The position numbers and the translations under genes are program-made. DNA of 6,844 bases from a virus (Duplodnaviria; Heunggongvirae; Uroviricota; Caudoviricetes), in the IMG/VR virus record IMGVR_UViG_2687453529_000005. One strand, 5' to 3'. Below are positions 55 to 6,248 of the stretch, piece by piece. Under the pieces are notes generated by a model. It saw nothing but the letters and a program-made list of their open reading frames with translations, made no database searches and had not been told where the DNA came from. Within the stretch, counting starts at the first letter, position 1. Each line of letters opens with the position of its first letter.

Positions 55-402
55 TTACGAATTACTGCGGCGCTGTTGCTTTTCCGCATGTACGCGTTTC
101 ACAATCTTATAAATCCATTGCAGCGTCAGATTATATTTCTTCGCTAATTCGGCGTAGTTGCGCCCATCGCACTCGCTATAGATTTGGTAGTCACGCTCCG
201 ATGCTCGTCCGGAGATCCCCTTAGGGAAATAGATGCTTTGTCCGCCCCAGTTACGCATCATTCGGTCGGCAATGGCAAAACCCACATTTTCTGCCGATGA
301 ACTGTCGAGATTGATGCTTTCAATCAGAACTTGCGATGCATGAAAAGCCAGGTCGTTAATGATCTCCGGTGTCCGGGCCATCTCTTTTGATTTTCGTATC
401 AT
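55..402 (-). CDS. Mor/C-family transcriptional activator (phage middle/late gene activator)
   Basis: 115-aa ORF with the Mor/C signature as I recall it from Mu Mor: ...GGQSIYFPKG...RD..IY...DGRNY.ELAKKYNLTLQWIYKIVKR (C-terminal HTH). GGAG Shine-Dalgarno about 8 nt upstream of the ATG at 400-402 on the minus strand. Oriented divergently from the lysis/tail genes. Confidence 0.8.
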   Translation of the reverse strand: MIRKSKEMARTPEIINDLAFHASQVLIESINLDSSSAENVGFAIADRMMRNWGGQSIYFPKGISGRASERDYQIYSECDGRNYAELAKKYNLTLQWIYKIVKRVHAEKQQRRSNS

Positions 403-623
403 TTTTCATCTCCATATATCTTGCATCCTGAATAAGACCCGATGCGTGTAAAACCACGGATATACGCTAAGCAGTTGTCATTACTGCTACTCAATACATT
501 CAATAAACAAATAAACAATCACCAAAAATATAAACTTTTAATATTAATGAACGTCATAAATTCACGAAATAAATATATTGTTTGGATTATGTTTCTTATC
601 AACAGGAGTATCATTTTACACTA

Positions 624-643
624 TACTGTATACATATACAGTA
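624..643. promoter_or_regulatory. Candidate LexA (SOS) box
   Basis: TACTGTATACATATACAGTA matches the E. coli LexA consensus TACTGTATATATATACAGTA at 19 of 20 positions, with CTGT-N8-ACAG intact. It overlaps a possible rightward sigma70 promoter (-35 TCAACA at 599-604, 17-bp spacer, -10 TATACT at 622-627). Lies in the AT-rich divergent region between the Mor-like gene and the lysis operon. Confidence 0.65.
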
Positions 644-939
644 TTATTTTTACCTGTAGAGTAAAAAGATCGTTTCCCTCACAGTCGCTGACTTTCTTAA
701 ACAAACTTTAAAAATCAAATAACTATCGACTATTCCTACGATCCACCATCATCTTTCCCCTGCATAATGACGCGCTTATTAGCCTGGTCACCTTTTGCTC
801 TTTAATTGCTGAGTCGATTTATTAGCGGGCTTGTTCATTTATAGAGAATCTATTTTTTAAACTTATTTATTAAAGCTTTTTTCATTCTTCACTGGCGGGG
901 TCTGACGACACTAAACGCTCACTTATCAGGAGATATCGT

Positions 940-1227
940 ATGAAAAAAGTCACTTTTCCCCGGCTTTCCGGCTGGCTAGTCGCTTCCGCCGCGCTGTTTG
1001 TCGTGATCGGCTGGACCTCTTCCGCACAGATCCCGGTCGTCATTTATAAACTAAGCCTGGTTTCGCTTTCCGCGGTGCTGGGATACTGGCTCGATCGCAG
1101 TTTGTTCCCCTGGGCACGGCCTGACTCTTTTAGCCCCTGGAAGGAACCTCGTTGCTGCGCGGCGGCAATGATTCGCCGCGCCATCATCGTTGCCGCCGTC
1201 TGTCTTTCCGTCGCCTTAGGGCTATAG
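940..1227 (+). CDS. Small membrane protein, holin candidate (first gene of lysis cassette)
   Basis: 95 aa with two to three hydrophobic helices (LSGWLVASAALFVVIGW; LSLVSLSAVLGYWL; AIIVAAVCLSVALGL). Strong SD AGGAGA 7 nt before the ATG. GC-rich with high third-position GC. Stop TAG at 1225-1227 lies 4 nt before the start of the next gene. The overlapping minus-strand ORF 1044-1442 is judged spurious. Confidence 0.55.
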   Translation: MKKVTFPRLSGWLVASAALFVVIGWTSSAQIPVVIYKLSLVSLSAVLGYWLDRSLFPWARPDSFSPWKEPRCCAAAMIRRAIIVAAVCLSVALGL

Positions 1228-1231
1228 TGAT

Positions 1232-1837
1232 GTGGCTGAAATATATCGCGTCTATGATTATTTTCGTTCTTTTCCCCGCTTAACCGCCTCTGAACCGCCG
1301 CGAGCCTCTCTGGCATGGCGAAACGAACTAATTCGTACAGCTCGAGAAGTCTGGGGGCTGAATGCTCCAGTGGCCGACTTTGCCGGGCAATTACACCAGG
1401 AGTCCGCCTGGCAGCCAATGGTACGTTCCCCCGTTGGCGCACAAGGTATGGCGCAATTTATGCCTGCTACAGCGACATGGATAAGCCAGTTGTATCCACA
1501 ATTGCGTGAAAACAAACCGTATAACCCAACCTGGGCGATTCGCGCGCTGGTGCAATATGACCAGCATTTGTGGAAAAACATCTCTGCGAAAAATGATTGT
1601 CAGCGTATGGCGTTTACCCTAAGCGCCTATAACGGCGGTCAGGGGTGGGTTAACCGGGATAAAAAACTGGCTGCATCCAAAGGGTTAGATGCCACTAGCT
1701 GGTTTGGTCATGTTGAGCAAGTCAACGCCGGGCGCAGCGCCACGAACTGGCGAGAAAATCGTCGCTATCCAAAGATGATCCTCTATCAACATGCCGCCCG
1801 CTATTTACTCTGGGGACAGGCAAGCTGTCTTCATTAA
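1232..1837 (+). CDS. Lytic transglycosylase (SLT-domain) endolysin
   Basis: 201 aa containing the family-1 lytic transglycosylase motifs in order: catalytic E-S (QLHQESAWQP), GMAQFMP (the GLMQ motif) and SAYNGGQG (the AYNxG motif). GTG start at 1232 is the first start after the in-frame stop at 1217-1219 and is probably translationally coupled to the upstream gene. No N-terminal signal or SAR-like hydrophobic segment. Confidence 0.8.
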   Translation: MAEIYRVYDYFRSFPRLTASEPPRASLAWRNELIRTAREVWGLNAPVADFAGQLHQESAWQPMVRSPVGAQGMAQFMPATATWISQLYPQLRENKPYNPTWAIRALVQYDQHLWKNISAKNDCQRMAFTLSAYNGGQGWVNRDKKLAASKGLDATSWFGHVEQVNAGRSATNWRENRRYPKMILYQHAARYLLWGQASCLH

Positions 1838-1849
1838 TCAGAGGGGCCG

Positions 1850-2164
1850 ATGAAACTCAGTATCGATTTTTGGGAAGTGATCTCCCTTATGCTTTCCTTC
1901 GTTGGATTAATGTTTGCTGCCGGAAAACTGCTGTTAGCACAAATTGAAAAACGACTTAATGAGCGTTTTGAGTCTCTGGAAAATGCCCGCAGGGAATCAG
2001 AAACAAGTTGGTCGAAACTGGAAAGAGAATTTCTCGAATTTCGTGCCGAGCTTCCGCTGCATTATGTCCGCAGAGAAGATTATCTTCGTGGGCAAGCAGT
2101 ATTAGAAGCGAAGCTGGATGCCTTATATAGCAAAATCGAGCTGTTACAACGTGGCAGTTATTGA
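1850..2164 (+). CDS. Membrane-anchored coiled-coil protein; possible i-spanin-like or other lysis accessory protein
   Basis: 104 aa with an N-terminal hydrophobic segment (VISLMLSFVGLMFAAGKLLLA) followed by a highly charged, heptad-like helical region. SD GAGGGG 6 nt upstream of the ATG. Sits directly after the endolysin gene. No embedded or adjacent lipoprotein (o-spanin) ORF was found. Confidence 0.5.
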   Translation: MKLSIDFWEVISLMLSFVGLMFAAGKLLLAQIEKRLNERFESLENARRESETSWSKLEREFLEFRAELPLHYVRREDYLRGQAVLEAKLDALYSKIELLQRGSY

Positions 2165-2202
2165 AAAATCCCCACCCTTATGTAAGGGTGGGGATTTTTT
2201 TA
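2164..2202 (+). terminator. Rho-independent terminator (likely bidirectional)
   Basis: Perfect GC-rich inverted repeat AAAAATCCCCACCCTTA-TG-TAAGGGTGGGGATTTTT followed by a run of 8 T; the A-run on the 5' side gives a U-tract on the opposite strand as well. Lies immediately after the stop of the 1850-2164 gene. Confidence 0.8.
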
Positions 2203-2308
2203 ACCATTCAATTTTTTCTCTAAATCACATTAAAAGATTCTTCACCTTCGCTGCTTCAGAATACATTTCAACGATAACGAAGTGAGCGGTAATTAAGGTA
2301 CAGCCTAT

Positions 2309-2764
2309 ATGGAAATTTTATCTGTAATGAATTCTGTTGTGACCAGATTACGTGAACACAACTCCGAAATGGATATATTTATTTCATCTAAGGATGCCCA
2401 GAAATATATTCCACAGACACAACGAGTTGCAGTGATTATTAATTATAGCGGTTCTGTCTTTGCTACGCCCGAAAGCAGTAATGCCATCGTGCAACAGCAA
2501 ATACTCCGCTTAACCGCCACCGTTATTGTTGGCAAAAATTGTGATGCATTAAACGCACTTGATCACATACGCAGCGCATTGGGTGGCCTTCCGCTTCCTG
2601 ATTGTGATCGTCTGCTTTGGCTTGAAAAAGAAATTAATACGGGTGAGAGCGGCGGTTTCTGCCGCTACATCCTGGAAATGGCGACCAGCTCGCTGTTTAT
2701 CGCTGAACAGGAAAGCACGGATCTTCCCCTGCTTACGGAAGTTAACTACGAGGAAACTGAATGA
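2309..2764 (+). CDS. Putative tail completion / terminator protein (Mu gp37-like position upstream of sheath)
   Basis: 151-aa ORF with AAGG 10 nt upstream of the ATG. Its stop overlaps the next start in an ATGA arrangement (2761-2764). Function is inferred from gene order in Mu/P2-type tail modules, not from a recognised motif. Confidence 0.5.
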   Translation: MEILSVMNSVVTRLREHNSEMDIFISSKDAQKYIPQTQRVAVIINYSGSVFATPESSNAIVQQQILRLTATVIVGKNCDALNALDHIRSALGGLPLPDCDRLLWLEKEINTGESGGFCRYILEMATSSLFIAEQESTDLPLLTEVNYEETE

Positions 2765-2958
2765 AATACATCTACAACGGCCCAGCAAGCGGCGTCACCC
2801 TTGCCGATGGACAAGAAATCTTATTGTGGCCGAACAGTGAAATTGATCTGCCAGAAGACAACGAGTGGGTCATGACCATGATTGCCCGCAATCATCTGAC
2901 TCCTGTCATCACTCAGGAAGAACAAAATAACGTAGAGGAAATTGTACATGGCAGCTAA
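2761..2958 (+). CDS. Small acidic protein of unknown function (Mu gp38-like position)
   Basis: 65-aa ORF translationally coupled at both ends: ATGA overlap with the upstream gene and an 11-nt overlap with the sheath start. No recognisable motif; supported only by operon context. Confidence 0.4.
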   Translation: MKYIYNGPASGVTLADGQEILLWPNSEIDLPEDNEWVMTMIARNHLTPVITQEEQNNVEEIVHGS

Positions 2959-4372
2959 TTATCTGCACGGTGTAGAAACTATTGAAATTGAAACCGGCCC
3001 GCGTCCGGTTAAAGCGGTAAAATCCGCCGTCATCGCTTTAATCGGTACATCCCCCTGCGGTCCGGTAAATAAACCAACATTATGCCTTTCTGAAAGCGAT
3101 GCTGCGCAGTTTGGCTCGACTCAGGCTAACTTTACGATCCCACAGGCACTGAAGGCAATTTATGACCACGGTGCCGGTACGGTGGTGGTGATTAACGTGC
3201 TGGATCCGGCAAAACATGGCTCCAACATCAGCAATGAGAGTATCACTTTTGATGCTAACAACCAGGCGAAGCTCGCTCACCGCAATGTGCGTAACGTGGT
3301 ACTAAAGCCCTCTTCATCAAATTCATCAACCTTTAACACCGCAGCATTTAGCGTAGATGAACAAACAGGCATAATTACCCGTAAAGGAGCCGACATTCCT
3401 CCTGGTGCGAAAGTTTGTGCCTATTATTCCTGGTGCGACCCTACAAAGGTCACCGCAGCCGATATTATCGGTACCGTAAATACCGCAGGCGACCGCACGG
3501 GGATGAAACTCCTTCAGGACACCTATAACCTGTACGGTTTCTACGCCAAAATCCTGCTTGCTCCTGTGTTTTGTACGCAAAAATCGGTGACTACTGAGCT
3601 GATTGCACAAGCGGAAAAACTCGGTGCGATTACCTACATTGATGCCCCGATTGGGACAACATTCCAGCAGGTATTGGCTGGACGCGGTTCGCAAGGGGCT
3701 ATCAACTTCAATACCAGCTCTGATCGTGCGCGTTTATGTTACCCACATGTCAAAGTTTACGATGGCATCACTAACCAGGAAATTCTTGAGCCTCTCTCTT
3801 CGCGTGCTGCCGGGCTGCGTGCCAAAGTAGACCTCGAAAAAGGTTTCTGGTGGAGCAACTCAAACCAGGAAATTCAGGGTATTACCGGTATTGAACGTTC
3901 GCTTTCCGCAATGATTGATGATCCACAAAGCGAAGTGAATCAGCTCAACGAAAACGGCATTACCACTATTTTCAATAGTTACGGCTCTGGTCTGCGCTTG
4001 TGGGGTAACCGCACAGCGGCATGGCCTACCGTGACCCATATGCGTAACTTTGAAAACGTCCGCCGGACAGGCGATGTAATCAATGAGTCAATCCGTTATT
4101 TCAGTCAGCAGTATATTGATATGCCGATTAATCAGGCACTTATTGACGCGCTGACCGAATCGGTAAATACCTGGGGCCGAAAACTGATTGCCGACGGCGC
4201 ACTGCTTGGCTTTGAGTGCTGGTACGATCCGGCACGAAATTCACCGGCTGAACTCAGCGCCGGGCATTTATTGCTGAGCTATAAATTCACCCCGCCACCG
4301 CCGCTGGAACGTCTGACGTTTGAAACTGAAATTACTTCTGAATATTTAGTCTCTCTGGAGAGCAATAGCTAA
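2948..4372 (+). CDS. Contractile tail sheath protein (P2 FI / Mu L family)
   Basis: N-terminus MAANYLHGVETIEIETGPRPVKAVKSAVIALIGTSP matches the conserved sheath N-terminal pattern (HGV..E...G.R.I...S.A..G.VGT) as recalled for P2 FI and Mu L. About 474 aa. SD GAGGAA 7 nt upstream of the ATG at 2948; the ORF track's TTG at 2942 is less likely. Stop overlaps the tube start (TAATG). Confidence 0.9.
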   Translation: MAANYLHGVETIEIETGPRPVKAVKSAVIALIGTSPCGPVNKPTLCLSESDAAQFGSTQANFTIPQALKAIYDHGAGTVVVINVLDPAKHGSNISNESITFDANNQAKLAHRNVRNVVLKPSSSNSSTFNTAAFSVDEQTGIITRKGADIPPGAKVCAYYSWCDPTKVTAADIIGTVNTAGDRTGMKLLQDTYNLYGFYAKILLAPVFCTQKSVTTELIAQAEKLGAITYIDAPIGTTFQQVLAGRGSQGAINFNTSSDRARLCYPHVKVYDGITNQEILEPLSSRAAGLRAKVDLEKGFWWSNSNQEIQGITGIERSLSAMIDDPQSEVNQLNENGITTIFNSYGSGLRLWGNRTAAWPTVTHMRNFENVRRTGDVINESIRYFSQQYIDMPINQALIDALTESVNTWGRKLIADGALLGFECWYDPARNSPAELSAGHLLLSYKFTPPPPLERLTFETEITSEYLVSLESNS

Positions 4373-4896
4373 TGGCTGGAAAAATTCAAATTAACCGTAT
4401 TACCAACGCCAATATTTATCTCGATGGTAATAACCTTTTAGGTCGTGCAACAGAAATTAAATTGCCGGATGTAAGTTTAATTATGCAGGAGCATAAAGCA
4501 CTGGGCATGGTGGGTAAAATCGAACTCCCGGCAGGTTTCGATAAACTGGAGGGCGAAATTAAATGGAACTCCTTCTATCAGGACGTAATGCGTAAAACGG
4601 CAAACCCGTGGCAGGCGGTTGCATTACAGTGCCGCTCCAGTATTGATTGCTATAACTCCCAGGGGAAAGCGAATCAATTAGCGCTAGTGACACATTTAAC
4701 CGTGATGTTTAAAAAGAATCCACTGGGCACATTTAAACAGAATGAAAACCCGGAATTCAGCAGCGCCTTTGGTTGCACTTATATTAAACAAGTAGTTGAT
4801 GGTGAAACGCTGCTTGAACTTGATTATATGGCCAATATTTTCCGGGTTAATGGTGTGGATCAATTAAGTACCTATCGCAATAACATCGGTGGCTAA
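4372..4896 (+). CDS. Tail tube protein (P2 FII / Mu M family)
   Basis: 174 aa; C-terminus ...FRVNGVDQLSTYRNNIGG closely resembles the P2 FII C-terminus as recalled (...VNGVD.L...R.NIGL). Immediately follows the sheath gene with a 1-nt overlap. Confidence 0.9.
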   Translation: MAGKIQINRITNANIYLDGNNLLGRATEIKLPDVSLIMQEHKALGMVGKIELPAGFDKLEGEIKWNSFYQDVMRKTANPWQAVALQCRSSIDCYNSQGKANQLALVTHLTVMFKKNPLGTFKQNENPEFSSAFGCTYIKQVVDGETLLELDYMANIFRVNGVDQLSTYRNNIGG

Positions 4897-4900
4897 GTTA

Positions 4901-4920
4901 TTCGGGGCTACGGCCCCGAA
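4901..4920 (+). other. Stem-loop between tube and chaperone genes (possible attenuator or mRNA-stabilising hairpin)
   Basis: TTCGGGGC-TACG-GCCCCGAA is a perfect 8-bp GC-rich stem with a 4-nt loop, 5 nt after the tube stop, followed only by CTTT (weak U-tract). Confidence 0.35.
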
Positions 4921-4946
4921 CTTTGCAAAATAAATAAGGACACAAA

Positions 4947-5264
4947 ATGAAAGAACATTATATCTTGCAGTTTCCATTTACGTCGGCAGCAGGAAATAAT
5001 ATCGACACGCTGCAATTACGTCGCCTGAAAGTAAAAGATATGCGCAACGCCCGCCGGATCAGCGAAAAGCCAGAAGAGTGGGATGAACCGCTGATGGCGG
5101 CGATGACCGGACTGGTGCCAGAAGATTTAGCCGAAATGGATTTGCTGGATTACCAGGCATTGCAGAAACGATTTCAATCCATGCTTACCGTGGTTACAGA
5201 ATCCTCCCCTGCTATGGCAGGCAATGGCGCTACTGGCGAGATGGTTTCGCTTTCCGCCCAGTGA
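4947..5264 (+). CDS. Tail assembly chaperone (P2 gpE-like)
   Basis: 105-aa ORF between the tube and tape measure genes, the conserved position of the tail chaperone. SD AAGGA 9 nt upstream. Similarity to P2 gpE is from recall only and is loose; ends ...SLSAQ. Confidence 0.7.
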   Translation: MKEHYILQFPFTSAAGNNIDTLQLRRLKVKDMRNARRISEKPEEWDEPLMAAMTGLVPEDLAEMDLLDYQALQKRFQSMLTVVTESSPAMAGNGATGEMVSLSAQ

Positions 5265-5352
5265 GATAGACGCCCTTACCGTCGATGACTTTAGCAACTG
5301 GCTGGATGAAGCCAGCGCCCAAATAAAAATCGAATATGACTCGCAGACCTGA
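5131..5352 (+). other. Open +1 frame overlapping the chaperone 3' end and extending about 29 codons past its stop (candidate E-prime-type frameshift extension or small overlapping ORF)
   Basis: The frame shifted +1 relative to the chaperone is stop-free from 5131 to the TGA at 5350-5352 and reads ...MALLARWFRFPPSEIDALTVDDFSNWLDEASAQIKIEYDSQT. The -1 frame hits TAG at 5267-5269. An internal ATG at 5224 could alternatively initiate a 42-codon ORF. Confidence 0.4.
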
Positions 5353-5453
5353 TGTCTGCGAGTTTCCCAAGCCCGTCAGGTTTATTTCTTCCCTGCCCCT
5401 TTTTTTAGAAAAATAACCAGCGGGCCATTATCAATATTTAAAGAGAAACAATT

Positions 5454-6248
5454 TTGGCCAACGATATTATTACCCAGCTTCAGGCGCGTAATGAGACGTT
5501 GACGCAGGCAATAGCCCGTTACGGCTCACTCAACGCCAGAACATTGTTAACTCTCTCTACTCAGCAGGCGACAGTTATCAAACTAACGCAGCAGCTTGCC
5601 GATTCCGCTCTCCGCCTGGAGGAAAATAGCCGCAGCCGCGCTAATCTGATGGAGAAAACCCAAACATTTGCCGGGCAATTTAGCAAAGTATTCAATGTTG
5701 AAGCCCCCGACTGGAAGTTGCCGTATGAGTTTCAGGACAACATGGTCAATATGGCGACCAAAGGTGGGATGAATGCTACAACCCGCGAGACGCTCAGCCT
5801 TAATCTGCGCGACTGGAGCATGGATTTTAACCAGCAGCAGACCACCTTACAGAACGCAGCCCAAACGCTGATCGAAGGCAATTTGTCGTCGATGCAGGAT
5901 CTCAACCGTTATATGCCGGAGATCGCCAAAGCTGCCACCGCCACGCGCGAAAGTGCTGAAACGTGGGCGAATGCCGCGCTCGCGACTCATGATCGACTGA
6001 ATATTGCCCCGGAAAATTTCCACGCCGCGCAAAACATGATGTACGGCATTAGCAAAAGCGGTGGGCCTGCCATTGCTGAACAAACGCAGTGGATAGAGAA
6101 ATTTGCAGGTAAAACCGGCGCTCAGGGTCTGGAAGGTATGGCTGAACTGACTGCCGCCATGCAGATCGCAATGAAAAATGGGGCCAGCGCCAGTGCGGCG
6201 GCGGAGAATTTTGAAATGATTTACTGGAGAGTTTATCAAAAGCGTTAA
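5454..6248 (+). pseudogene. Tail tape measure protein, N-terminal fragment only (truncated by deletion)
   Basis: TTG start after the chaperone, in the expected tape measure position, with Ala/Gln-rich helical sequence typical of tape measure N-termini. The ORF stops after about 264 codons, far too short for a sheathed-tail tape measure, and its last ~11 codons (..EMIYWRVYQKR) are read out of frame from cadC-like sequence. Confidence 0.6.

Follow-up and report, generated by a model that had tools for sequence, protein, structure and literature searches.

The gene at 55-402 of the window, by which is meant the whole 6,844-nucleotide stretch of DNA analysed here, is probably the late-gene activator of a domesticated, headless tail cluster of BcepMu type that lies beside lysC, in which control would pass from LexA to mor and from Mor to the late promoters. 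Judged from its genes, by which it is known here, the cluster looks like an R-type tailocin-like element. Comparison of gene orders indicates that the opposite orientation of mor is the ancestral Bcepmuvirus plan and not a new type of switch. The sequence-only reading had described the region as unlike classical Mu, and as a difference in layout this is correct, but the layout does not represent an unusual rearrangement of a Mu-like phage since in BcepMu the activator gp01 already lies opposite to the late genes.

The activator gene and its neighbours

The genes and boundaries on which the analysis rests are as follows.

13-42, hairpin GGTGAATAGCG-N8-CGCTATTCACC: probable terminator for both lysC and mor, which converge here, read from the sequence
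55-402, minus strand: mor, Mor/C-family transcription activator, 115 aa
403-428, minus strand: mor translation-initiation region, Shine-Dalgarno GGAGAT with about 15 further conserved bases; invariant or near-invariant alignment columns, including in the nine-sequence spacer alignment
403-939: regulatory spacer of 537 bp from which mor and the holin gene diverge, with conserved blocks in a nine-sequence alignment
940-1227, plus strand: holin (Holin_2-3; Pfam 1e-26), 63% identical to BcepMu gp21
1230-1837, plus strand: SLT-type endolysin (Pfam SLT 9e-15)
1850-2164, plus strand: membrane / coiled-coil protein, homologue of BcepMu gp25 (46% identity to BcepMu 13115-13429)
2163-2207, plus strand: intrinsic terminator closing the lysis operon (-28.5 kcal/mol, z = -5.75, then U7)
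2309-6214, plus strand: tail genes under the tail promoter P_tail, namely gp37, orf65, sheath, tube, TAC and a tape measure truncated at 6214 (Pfam; collinear with BcepMu gp37-gp44)

The mor product matches Pfam Mor PF08765 with E=7.1e-38 and 129.3 bits (cut-off 24.9) over profile positions 2-103 of 107, and Mor is the only significant Pfam family of this protein. Among solved structures it aligns through the linker and helix-turn-helix (HTH) region with Mu Mor (1RR7, E=5e-8; residues 46-109 with Mor 58-121) and Mu C (9L0X, E=7e-5; residues 52-105 with C 69-122), where its motif WGGQSIYFPKG corresponds to LGGGQVYIPRG. The other window ORFs tested gave no Mor/C match in Pfam, such that the earlier identification of a Mor/C homologue here, and of it as the sole one in the window, is borne out. 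A PrtN-type identity was ruled out, as the protein matches only Mor in Pfam. The closest comparisons are with BcepMu gp01, termed 'late transcriptional activator' (49% identical), and with a Pectobacterium protein (50%) whose gene follows that of a cI-like S24 repressor. No cI-like HTH-S24 repressor ORF lies beside mor, the neighbours of which are lysC and the spacer. The stop codon of lysC lies immediately to the left of the window, and the hairpin at 13-42, which forms the left edge of the element, separates it from that of mor; the distance from the end of lysC to mor is 54 nt in strains FDAARGOS_497 and IMT16316.

The holin gene and the lysis and tail genes that follow it are all on the plus strand, and the activator thus does point away from the late operon across an AT-rich spacer of exactly 537 bp, as had been proposed. 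The GC content of this spacer is 0.20-0.41 per 100 nt and 0.33 overall, against about 0.5-0.6 in the flanking genes. An Rfam scan of 1-2400 at a permissive threshold returned no family in the spacer, the only hits being chance matches on the terminator hairpin, and none of the small ORFs listed in the spacer stood out.

The element possesses its own lysis cassette, consisting of the Holin_2-3 holin, the SLT endolysin and the gp25-like membrane protein; no Rz/Rz1 homologue was found in it by comparison with BcepMu. By eye, an alignment shows the hairpin and T-run that close the lysis operon in Phytobacter and in the two Superficieibacter species, and not in Dryocola. Given the strength of this terminator between the lysis and tail operons, the tail genes need a promoter of their own.

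The Mor box and the late promoters

Two promoter regions of activator type were located in the window.

851-868, plus strand: conserved A/T block TATTTTTTAAACTTATTT, about -68 to -51 of the lysis promoter
869-912, plus strand: lysis promoter region P_lys, half-box and -10
869-885, plus strand: candidate activator half-box of P_lys, left arm ATTAAAG (869-875), right arm altered to TTTYCRT yet conserved, centred near -42
907-912, plus strand: P_lys -10 GACACT, xAyACT in all orthologues, no -35 match
2219-2262, plus strand: tail promoter region P_tail, Mor box and -10
2219-2238, plus strand: canonical Mor box of P_tail, TCTAAATCACATTAAAAGAT, 22.0 bits by position weight matrix (PWM)
2257-2262, plus strand: P_tail -10 CAGAAT, no -35 match; GATAAT or AATAAT in Superficieibacter species

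Fundamental to this assignment is the Mor box consensus, TnTAAAG-N4-TTAAAAGA, with a -10 hexamer 31 nt after the left arm. The PWM used to scan the window was built without any E. coli site, and its score at P_tail compares with shuffle maxima that average 9.7 and reach at most 18.3 bits; no other high-scoring box was found in the window. Promoters targeted by Mor and C have a 16-bp dyad at -43.5 that overlaps the -35 region, and a -10 but no -35 (PMC2582627; PMC4390567). P_tail appears to fit this rule, as it has a -10 and no -35, and the centre of its dyad at 2219-2235, position 2227, would lie near -42 if transcription starts 7 nt after the -10. The same geometry is predicted in BcepMu, in Mu-like prophages and in Chromobacterium.

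The box is also widely distributed. It occurs in the P_tail regions of five other enterobacterial genera and, with the same 31-nt spacing to a -10, in the GC-rich spacers of Chromobacterium and Rivihabitans. In Mu-like prophages it is found directly after mor and before the holin gene, in BcepMu before both holin gp21 (23.7 bits) and head gene gp32 (25.8 bits), and in the complete E. coli element before gpW too. Of 120 exact matches in viral contigs, 35 fall in contigs that also encode a homologue of Mor, of a lysis protein or of sheath, tube or TAC from the element, and in 13 of those 35 a Mor homologue is encoded. The inferred box appears to be specific to the Mor subfamily of the element, and together with its 31-nt spacing it is a usable predictor of late promoters in BcepMu-type phages and their derivatives. 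A bidirectional box in Chromobacterium was considered and rejected, as its mor side has no -10 at the right distance.

P_lys has half of a canonical box only and fails as a full Mor box in the PWM scan. Its left arm is kept in 9/9 orthologues and stands 31 nt from the -10, as in the canonical boxes of BcepMu and Mu-like prophages, while the right arm TTTYCRT is degenerate relative to TTAAAAGAC. Reading ATTAAAG as the right arm was dropped since the spacing is inconsistent, the motif being 11 bp too far from the -10. The A/T block at 851-868 may be UP-element-like or may provide an extra activator contact. A search for Mor/C-type dyads had been advised in 700-940 and 2203-2308, and promoters with a -10, no -35 and a conserved element near -42 are indeed present in both regions, although the site in the first is just a half-box.

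Does the activator serve these promoters at all, or does it mainly regulate host genes elsewhere, like RdgB for pectin lyase in Pectobacterium, such that its proximity to tail genes is incidental? The Pectobacterium homologues, at 50% identity, are located away from any tail cluster and after a cI-like repressor, and many Salmonella keep mor beside lysC with no adjacent lysis genes. However, the canonical boxes coincide exactly with the element's tail and baseplate promoters and the window holds no further high-scoring box, which makes a principal role in host-gene control very improbable and favours mor as an activator of the cluster.

The LexA box and the spacer

Between the two divergent genes the following features were recognised.

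490-516: conserved block 2 (AATACATT...GAATAAATA), from the nine-sequence alignment
577-582, minus strand: candidate -10 AACAAT for a speculative promoter reading leftward into mor; the TGTAAAA half-site lies 31 nt upstream
612-621: conserved CAyTTTACAc beside the LexA box, in all 7 spacers that keep the box and always 5-6 bp from it
615-620 and 637-642, plus strand: -35 TTTACA and -10 TACAGT of a rival rightward promoter by sequence match, start near 649
624-643: LexA (SOS) box TACTGTATACATATACAGTA, 1 mismatch in 20 to the consensus
697-720: conserved block 4 (TTTAAAC-AAAC-TTTAAAAATCAA), kept in 6/8 genera

The LexA box that the earlier reading had noticed is confirmed. With the operator consensus used (CTGT-N8-ACAG / TACTGTATATATATACAGTA), none of 200 shuffles gave any match at 3 or fewer mismatches. 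Orthologous spacers were compared from other genera or contigs, and seven of the nine retain the box. The box is absent from BcepMu, and in Enterobacter hormaechei it has been lost from an intact cluster, from which it follows that LexA control is not universal.

The main difficulty lies in the direction in which this operator acts, as the same conserved bases serve a plus-strand and a minus-strand promoter reading. On the plus strand 612-621 provides the -35 TTTACA; on the minus strand it gives TGTAAAA, which resembles the left arm of a Mor box or, as TAAAAT, a -10. The LexA box overlaps the rightward TTTACA-16-TACAGT and abuts the leftward candidates, which are either TAAAAT at 618-613 or the TGTAAAA half-box with the -10 at 582-577. 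A good -10 hexamer occurs at an offset of 31-32 in 4/6 genera, for a background of 0.039 per position. The full-box PWM detects no box near the operator.

It is thus conceivable, if unlikely, that LexA gates a rightward promoter into the holin/endolysin operon, with mor expressed from a LexA-independent promoter (for instance near 527-532) and with Mor required only for the tail operon beyond the terminator. TTTACA-16-TACAGT is the best sigma-70 match in the spacer (9/12) in the promoter scan, is oriented to holin and not to mor, and is fully covered by the LexA box, and its TTTACA is kept wherever the box is kept; moreover, a second positionally conserved -10-like hexamer, outside the box and about 130 nt upstream of the mor ATG (offset 81-82; 5/6 genera), could supply the independent mor promoter. 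Yet under such gating the SOS response would trigger lysis without tails and would leave mor with no visible control, which would be lethal if Mor also drives P_lys. Further, the 270 nt from the predicted start to P_lys are poorly conserved and variable in length, the -10 is weaker in Dryocola (AACAGT), and the ancestral BcepMu activator ends a leftward operon that is driven from a divergent control region. Repression of a leftward mor promoter by LexA is the likelier reading.

If mor is transcribed from the region of the LexA box, then block 2 lies within the mor leader. Block 4 may be a dyad that resembles the Mor box but has one extra base in its spacer, or an A-tract of IHF type with ATCAA; it is below threshold in the PWM scan and has no conserved -10 close by, and against an IHF site the WATCAA and A-tract match whereas TTR is missing.

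Comparison with known regulatory systems

All 17 of the 17 proteins tested have collinear homologues in BcepMu, where gp01 has the same relative orientation, on the strand opposite to holin, SLT, gp25, gp37, sheath and on to gpI, and where the same box precedes the holin gene with the same 31 nt to the -10. Unlike the element, BcepMu is a complete transposable phage, in which gp01 is the last gene of a leftward early operon of about 9 kb, is 11 kb from holin and is controlled through the cI-like repressor gp17, with no LexA box. The element has no counterpart of gp02-gp20 (early, transposition and repressor functions), of Rz/Rz1 or of packaging and head genes gp26-gp36, and its mor has a spacer of its own with a LexA box. 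With the opposite orientation inherited, the loss of gp02-gp20 would have brought mor next to the lysis genes.

Mor and C of phage Mu belong to the same Pfam family with the same conserved linker-HTH region, and their target promoters likewise combine a -10 with an imperfect dyad near -43 and lack a -35 (PMC2582627). In Mu, however, the middle activator Mor and the late activator C form a two-step cascade and are encoded on the same strand as the late genes, whereas the element has a single activator on the opposite strand.

Other systems couple DNA damage to related outputs. In Pectobacterium carotovorum a Mor-family activator is switched on by DNA damage in the RdgA/RdgB control of pectin lyase, and RdgA/RdgB control of carotovoricin and lysis was reportedly described by Liu et al. 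in 1994 and McEvoy et al. in 1992. The Pectobacterium homologue of mor follows a 249-aa HTH-S24 repressor (HTH...GDSMEP). In that system the damage signal is relayed by RdgA, a cI-like repressor dedicated to this task, and the activator gene lies apart from the tail cluster; the element, in contrast, has no such repressor gene, carries a host LexA box in its spacer and has the activator at the edge of the cluster. Carotovoricin has been described as a Mu-type tailocin with no repressor of its own (PMC13566846). The gp32 protein of phage phiE255 is annotated 'DNA-binding protein RdgB'.

The PrtN/PrtR system of pyocins resembles the circuit proposed below in its logic, with RecA-dependent removal of a repressor leading to an activator that acts on boxes upstream of the lysis and tail genes of a headless cluster (PMC5411513). 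It differs in that PrtN is not of the Mor family, the repressor PrtR is encoded by the pyocin element itself and the tails are P2-like. Two further candidates proved not to be the cluster studied here. The Epel endolysins of ExPEC, for which LexA control has been reported (PMC9621596), differ from it in both boxes and genes, and the 'tailocin' of ST131 (PMC9205054) is a prophage of P2 type that carries capsid genes. No regulatory information was found in a review of kosakonicin.

A proposed circuit

The origin of the circuit would lie in the loss of early genes that brought mor next to the holin gene, after which the 537-bp spacer would have taken over the control elements. In the undamaged cell LexA, bound to the near-consensus box at 624-643, would hold the leftward mor promoter shut. 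Upon DNA damage LexA would be cleaved and Mor made, and a Mor dimer is predicted to bind the conserved box near -42 in sigma-70 promoters with a -10 and without a -35. In this way Mor would turn on the tail operon through the box at 2219-2238 and the lysis operon through the half-box at 869-885, and in complete copies the baseplate operon as well. The resulting map thus has a single LexA operator and a single activator of the Mor family, with two promoters inside the window and a third one in complete copies. The comparison with BcepMu illustrates how a transposable phage can turn into a weapon under host control when two segments are deleted and a host operator is acquired. As a speculation, the degenerate right arm of P_lys could mean that lysis needs more Mor and hence comes later than tail synthesis.

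A more tentative extension, and one that we consider rather unlikely, is that host LexA directly replaced the phage repressor and that the switch is a LexA-gated positive-feedback loop with a Mor-dependent mor promoter. Such dependence is suggested by the TGTAAA(A/G) half-box, which is always 5-6 bp from the LexA box, together with the -10 hexamer 31-32 nt further towards mor, and it is from the positions of these two elements that autoactivation is proposed. If the loop were to exist, LexA would block autoactivation, so that a few cells would commit, all-or-none, to a suicidal release of tails, and the weaker box of the lysis operon would delay lysis until tails have been assembled.

Distribution and integrity of the element

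The headless tail cluster adjoining lysC is about 16 kb in length. About 3.6% of complete E. coli genomes (194 of 5,426) carry it, as do several other Enterobacteriaceae; at least five other enterobacterial genera carry it, and K-12 is without it. Full-text literature searches aimed at this lysC-linked element found no description, and it is apparently an undescribed contractile-tail bacteriocin-like cluster. The divergent mor layout is kept in Dryocola, Phytobacter, two species of Superficieibacter, Enterobacter hormaechei and metagenomic contigs. Adjacency to lysC is seen for the element in E. coli, Enterobacter and an ENA metagenome contig (L082), and for mor in Salmonella (L077/L078) and a Logan contig (L083). 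The annotation of 16.5 kb from lysC to yjbD shows no capsid, portal, terminase, replication/transposition or integrase genes, apart from an IS1 insertion.

The copy in the window is damaged. Its tape measure is cut at 6214 and joined to cadC, a junction that is absent from all complete E. coli genomes, and its endolysin is frameshifted by two extra C residues that cut off the N-terminal hydrophobic segment (alignment to three strains; intact gene translated). With both defects this copy is unable to make particles alone. Related copies also have deletions, namely WB61, the tail-less L084 and a Salmonella remnant with mor only. These losses are what would be expected of a decaying prophage remnant with no coordinated function, in which both the LexA box and the way mor points would be accidents of history. 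Against this stand complete copies, such as that of strain IMT16316, with sheath, tube, tape measure, baseplate and fibre genes all intact, the maintenance of the lysC-adjacent cluster in several genera at 76-94% protein identity, and the conservation of the LexA box and both promoter elements within an otherwise fast-diverging spacer. General decay is on this evidence improbable, and a functional cluster, of which the window holds a broken copy, is preferred.

In clinical strains the cluster is both target and passenger of ISEcp1/blaCTX-M-15 activity, a linkage through which SOS-inducing antibiotics could trigger lysis or tail release in resistant lineages.

A headless tail cluster beside lysC

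In the window mor is read on the minus strand and a long spacer separates it from plus-strand lysis and tail genes, with the features arranged as follows.

13-42: hairpin
55-402, minus strand: mor, a 115-aa ORF
403-939: spacer of 537 bp
851-868: A/T block
869-875: ATTAAAG
907-912: -10 hexamer (xAyACT) of P_lys, the candidate lysis promoter
940-1227, plus strand: holin (Holin_2-3)
about 1230-1837, plus strand: endolysin with an SLT domain
1850-2164, plus strand: membrane/coiled-coil protein of 104 aa
2163-2207, plus strand: strong intrinsic terminator (-28.5 kcal/mol, z = -5.75)
gap of 144 bp
then, plus strand: Gp37-family protein, 65-aa ORF, tail sheath, tail tube, tail assembly chaperone (TAC) and tape measure

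The tape measure protein is represented by its first 253 codons only, since the gene breaks off at 6214, and from 6215 to its end the window consists of the 3' part of cadC. Up to 6214 the window sits immediately after lysC in complete E. coli genomes, with at least 80% of it present in 194 of 5,426. In IMT16316 the element extends over about 16.5 kb, starting with mor and finishing, before yjbD/rluF, with the genes for tail fibre and fibre assembly, and encodes the tape measure, gpU/X/D-like proteins, V, W, J, I and fibre; its annotation there holds no capsid, portal, terminase, transposase, integrase or repressor gene. Because tail, baseplate and fibre genes are present and these others absent, the element is a headless cluster for a contractile tail with a lysis cassette of its own, i.e. 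tailocin-like. The cluster with divergent mor also occurs in Dryocola, Phytobacter, two Superficieibacter species and contigs from public assemblies, as well as in Enterobacter hormaechei, where it again adjoins lysC. A full-text literature search found no published description of the lysC-linked element, apparently a previously undescribed tail cluster of Enterobacteriaceae. The ST131 'tailocin' and the ExPEC Epel endolysins were considered as described versions and rejected, as they lie at different loci.

Ancestry and orientation of the activator

What is the origin of an activator gene that points away from the late genes? The mor product matches Pfam PF08765 (Mor) with E = 7.1e-38 and 129 bits (cut-off 25), and aligns with the solved structures of Mu Mor (1RR7, 5e-8) and Mu C (9L0X, 7e-5) across the linker and helix-turn-helix. 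By sequence and promoter geometry it is assigned to the Mor/C family, and it is the only such homologue among the window ORFs tested, as the sequence-only reading had held for a lone activator opposite the late genes. The AT-rich spacer described there is likewise confirmed, at exactly 537 bp and a GC content of 0.33 (0.20-0.41 per 100-nt window).

Among characterised phage proteins the nearest is gp01 of BcepMu, which is 49% identical and carries the annotation 'late transcriptional activator'. All 17 element proteins from mor to gpI have BcepMu homologues in like order and relative orientation, with identities of 63% for the holin, 55% for SLT, 46% for the gp25-like protein, 71% for the sheath, 69% for the tube, 61% for gpW and 52% for gpJ. 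In BcepMu gp01 ends the leftward operon gp16-gp01, and the lysis, head and tail genes gp21-gp52 run rightward. Since gp01 is already opposite gp21-gp52 and the element is collinear, the orientation of mor is taken to be the ancestral Bcepmuvirus plan, with no local inversion. The earlier claim of a layout unlike that of classical Mu thus holds as a difference from Mu but not as a novelty, the arrangement being inherited from BcepMu-type phages. Relative to BcepMu the element lacks gp02-gp20 (early, transposition and repressor genes), Rz/Rz1 and gp26-gp36 (packaging and head), and by gene content would correspond to a BcepMu-type prophage after these losses, of which that of gp02-gp20 would have put mor beside the holin gene.

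Mu-like prophages with homologous holin-SLT-membrane cassettes (L023, L057 and L059) do follow classical Mu, their mor lying directly upstream and pointing the same way. Headless-looking clusters of Chromobacterium and Rivihabitans have mor at the edge, divergent from gp37-sheath-tube, and in Rivihabitans mor adjoins host genes. The absence of homologues of the BcepMu Rz/Rz1 spanins can be seen by comparing window 1837-2164 with BcepMu 12513-13447; the 104-aa protein is the counterpart of gp25, which lies downstream of the spanins in BcepMu.

A predicted box for the activator at the candidate tail promoter

Alignment of P_tail, the candidate promoter region before gp37, from five genera reveals a conserved element, TCTAAAT/G-CAsA-TTAAAAGA, followed by a -10 (CAGAAT, GATAAT or AATAAT), with no -35. 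It recurs in several unrelated settings: the GC-rich spacers of Chromobacterium (CTGTAAAGCGCGTTAAAAGACC), Rivihabitans, where it forms a near-perfect palindrome (TTGTAAACGAGTTTACAA), and Mu-like prophages, where it lies directly between mor and holin (TTTAAAGCGGTTTAAAAGAC, then TAGCAT or TAGTAT). In all cases the -10 hexamer starts 31 nt past the seventh base of the left arm, so that the 17-bp element is centred near -42. This agrees with the published rule for Mor and C, a 16-bp imperfect dyad centred at -43.5 and overlapping the missing -35 (PMC2582627; PMC4390567).

With a weight matrix built from non-E. coli sites only, the window box at 2219-2238 scores 22.0 bits (shuffle maxima: mean 9.7, largest 18.3), and the scan of the window gave no second strong box. 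The proposal that 2203-2308 might hold an activator-type site is therefore upheld, with box, -10 and no -35. The complete element has an additional match upstream of gpW. The two best matches in BcepMu are on the late-gene strand, one just upstream of holin gp21 (23.7 bits), the other just upstream of the head protease gene gp32 (25.8 bits). Exact box matches in viral contigs number 120, of which 35 lie in contigs encoding homologues of the element's Mor, lysis or sheath/tube/TAC proteins, 13 of these with a Mor homologue; three positions recur: downstream of mor, in the tube-TAC gap and ahead of gp37. We infer that the box is the predicted binding site of this Mor/C subfamily, for which a defined box is new, and that P_tail may be a former head-operon promoter joined to gp37 through head deletion.

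The tube-TAC gap, which holds a Mor box in related Mu-like phages, has none in the window; a GC-rich hairpin (TTCGGGGCTACGGCCCCGAA) lies there at 4897-4946, and a further hairpin with a T-run at 5340-5400, between TAC and the tape measure gene.

The candidate lysis promoter

Ahead of the holin gene the A/T block, ATTAAAG, a pyrimidine-rich TTTYCRT, the -10 and a Shine-Dalgarno sequence are kept at fixed spacing in nine of nine orthologues. ATTAAAG lies exactly 31 nt before the -10, the canonical left-arm position; the right arm is non-canonical and the site fails the full weight matrix. Of the site sought within 700-940, a left arm and -10 were hence found, but no full box. With one arm canonically placed and the other divergent, P_lys is probably activator-dependent through a half-canonical site, and a lower affinity there might delay lysis, a reasonable if speculative reading.

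A conserved block at 697-720, TTCTTAAACAAACTTTAAAAATCAA, resembles either a Mor box whose spacer has gained one base or an A-tract of the IHF type together with ATCAA; neither strand shows a conserved -10 hexamer where one would be expected.

The LexA box and its proposed control of mor

The LexA box of the sequence-only reading is indeed present in the spacer (TACTGTATACATATACAGTA, 624-643), one position off the 20-mer consensus, and none of 200 dinucleotide-preserving shuffles matched even at three mismatches. In E. coli, Dryocola, Phytobacter, both Superficieibacter species and two metagenomic contigs it precedes the mor ATG by 239-309 nt, and in Enterobacter hormaechei it has decayed. BcepMu has no corresponding box, so the enterobacterial lineage has gained it.

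Which arm would it control? Wherever the box is kept, CAyTTTACA stands 5-6 bp to its left, and this motif can be read in several ways. As a rightward -35 it gives the best sigma-70 match (TTTACA-16-TACAGT, 9/12), although a LexA-gated promoter of this kind is the less likely reading. It can also be read as a leftward -10, TAAAAT, or as a leftward Mor-box left arm, TGTAAA(A/G), which in four of six genera is followed, 31-32 nt closer to mor, by a good -10 hexamer (background 0.039 per position). Control of mor by the LexA box is favoured, because the ancestral plan expresses the activator from the leftward arm of a divergent control region, because a cell could not survive a lysis cassette whose activator went uncontrolled, and because a rightward SOS promoter would drive lysis without tails. 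Damage would remove LexA, allowing Mor to be made and to bind boxes at the lysis and tail genes.

This proposed logic of repressor removal, activator and boxes at lysis and tail genes is like that of RecA-RdgA-RdgB in Pectobacterium and RecA-PrtR-PrtN in Pseudomonas. RdgB is said, in work of Liu et al. in 1994 and McEvoy et al. in 1992, to resemble Mor and to control carotovoricin; annotation of phiE255 gp32 as 'RdgB' is consistent with that resemblance. The Pectobacterium Mor homologue (50% identity) is encoded after a 249-aa HTH-S24 repressor, and carotovoricin has been described as a Mu-type tailocin without its own repressor (PMC13566846). The element, having no adjacent repressor, is not a member of the RdgA/RdgB module, and the mor product falls outside the PrtN family. 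The new aspect of the circuit is that host LexA probably acts directly where such a phage would use its own repressor.

The box region varies between copies. In a Logan contig (L084) a different 14-bp palindrome, GCTTTTATAAAAGC, replaces the LexA box, and in the Salmonella mor-only remnant (L077/L078, 880-1320) the box was lost via a short deletion between repeated TATA...GTA flanks. Hairpin-forming repeats (…ACTTCAGGTTGC…GCGACTGAA…), about 64-70 bp long, interrupt the mor-side spacer in Superficieibacter electus and the stretch just past the lysis terminator in Phytobacter, so these stretches tolerate insertions.

Damaged and rearranged copies

The exact tape measure/cadC junction occurs in none of the 5,426 complete E. 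coli genomes. In WB61 (L081) the order is cadC'-ISEcp1-bla fragment-'lysC-mor-lysis-tail-TMP'-'cadC, an ISEcp1 transposition unit having entered cadC and brought the cluster's left part with it, and the window probably derives from a similar event. At about 1270-1290, in the 5' end of the endolysin gene, the window carries two extra C (CCC to CCCC; AACG to AACCG) relative to FDAARGOS_497 and IMT16316, and the resulting frameshift stops the ATG-initiated ORF after MWLKYIASMIIFVLFPA, so that the SLT domain is cut off from the hydrophobic, signal-anchor-like segment at the N-terminus; the extra residues may reflect a genuine inactivating lesion or an error in sequencing a homopolymer. The WB61 copy (L081 4880-4895 and 5183-5190) has a 49-bp deletion that takes out the P_lys -10, Shine-Dalgarno and holin ATG, and a 66-bp deletion of the endolysin N-terminal segment. 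That two independent truncated copies both carry lysis-cassette lesions suggests selection against SOS-inducible lysis without tails.

In FDAARGOS_497 (L001 26598-43120) ISEcp1-blaCTX-M-15 and a 16-kb IS26 resistance island with aac(3)-IIe, blaOXA-1, aac(6')-Ib-cr and tet(A) lie inside the tape measure gene of the lysC-linked cluster. The Logan contig (2201-4345) keeps mor and the holin-SLT-membrane protein genes with all tail genes deleted, the lysis cassette abutting RlaP/RtcB/Band_7. Salmonella serovars (cluster P0004, 332 member sequences) have kept mor intact next to lysC, with a hexapeptide-repeat protein as its neighbour instead of the holin.
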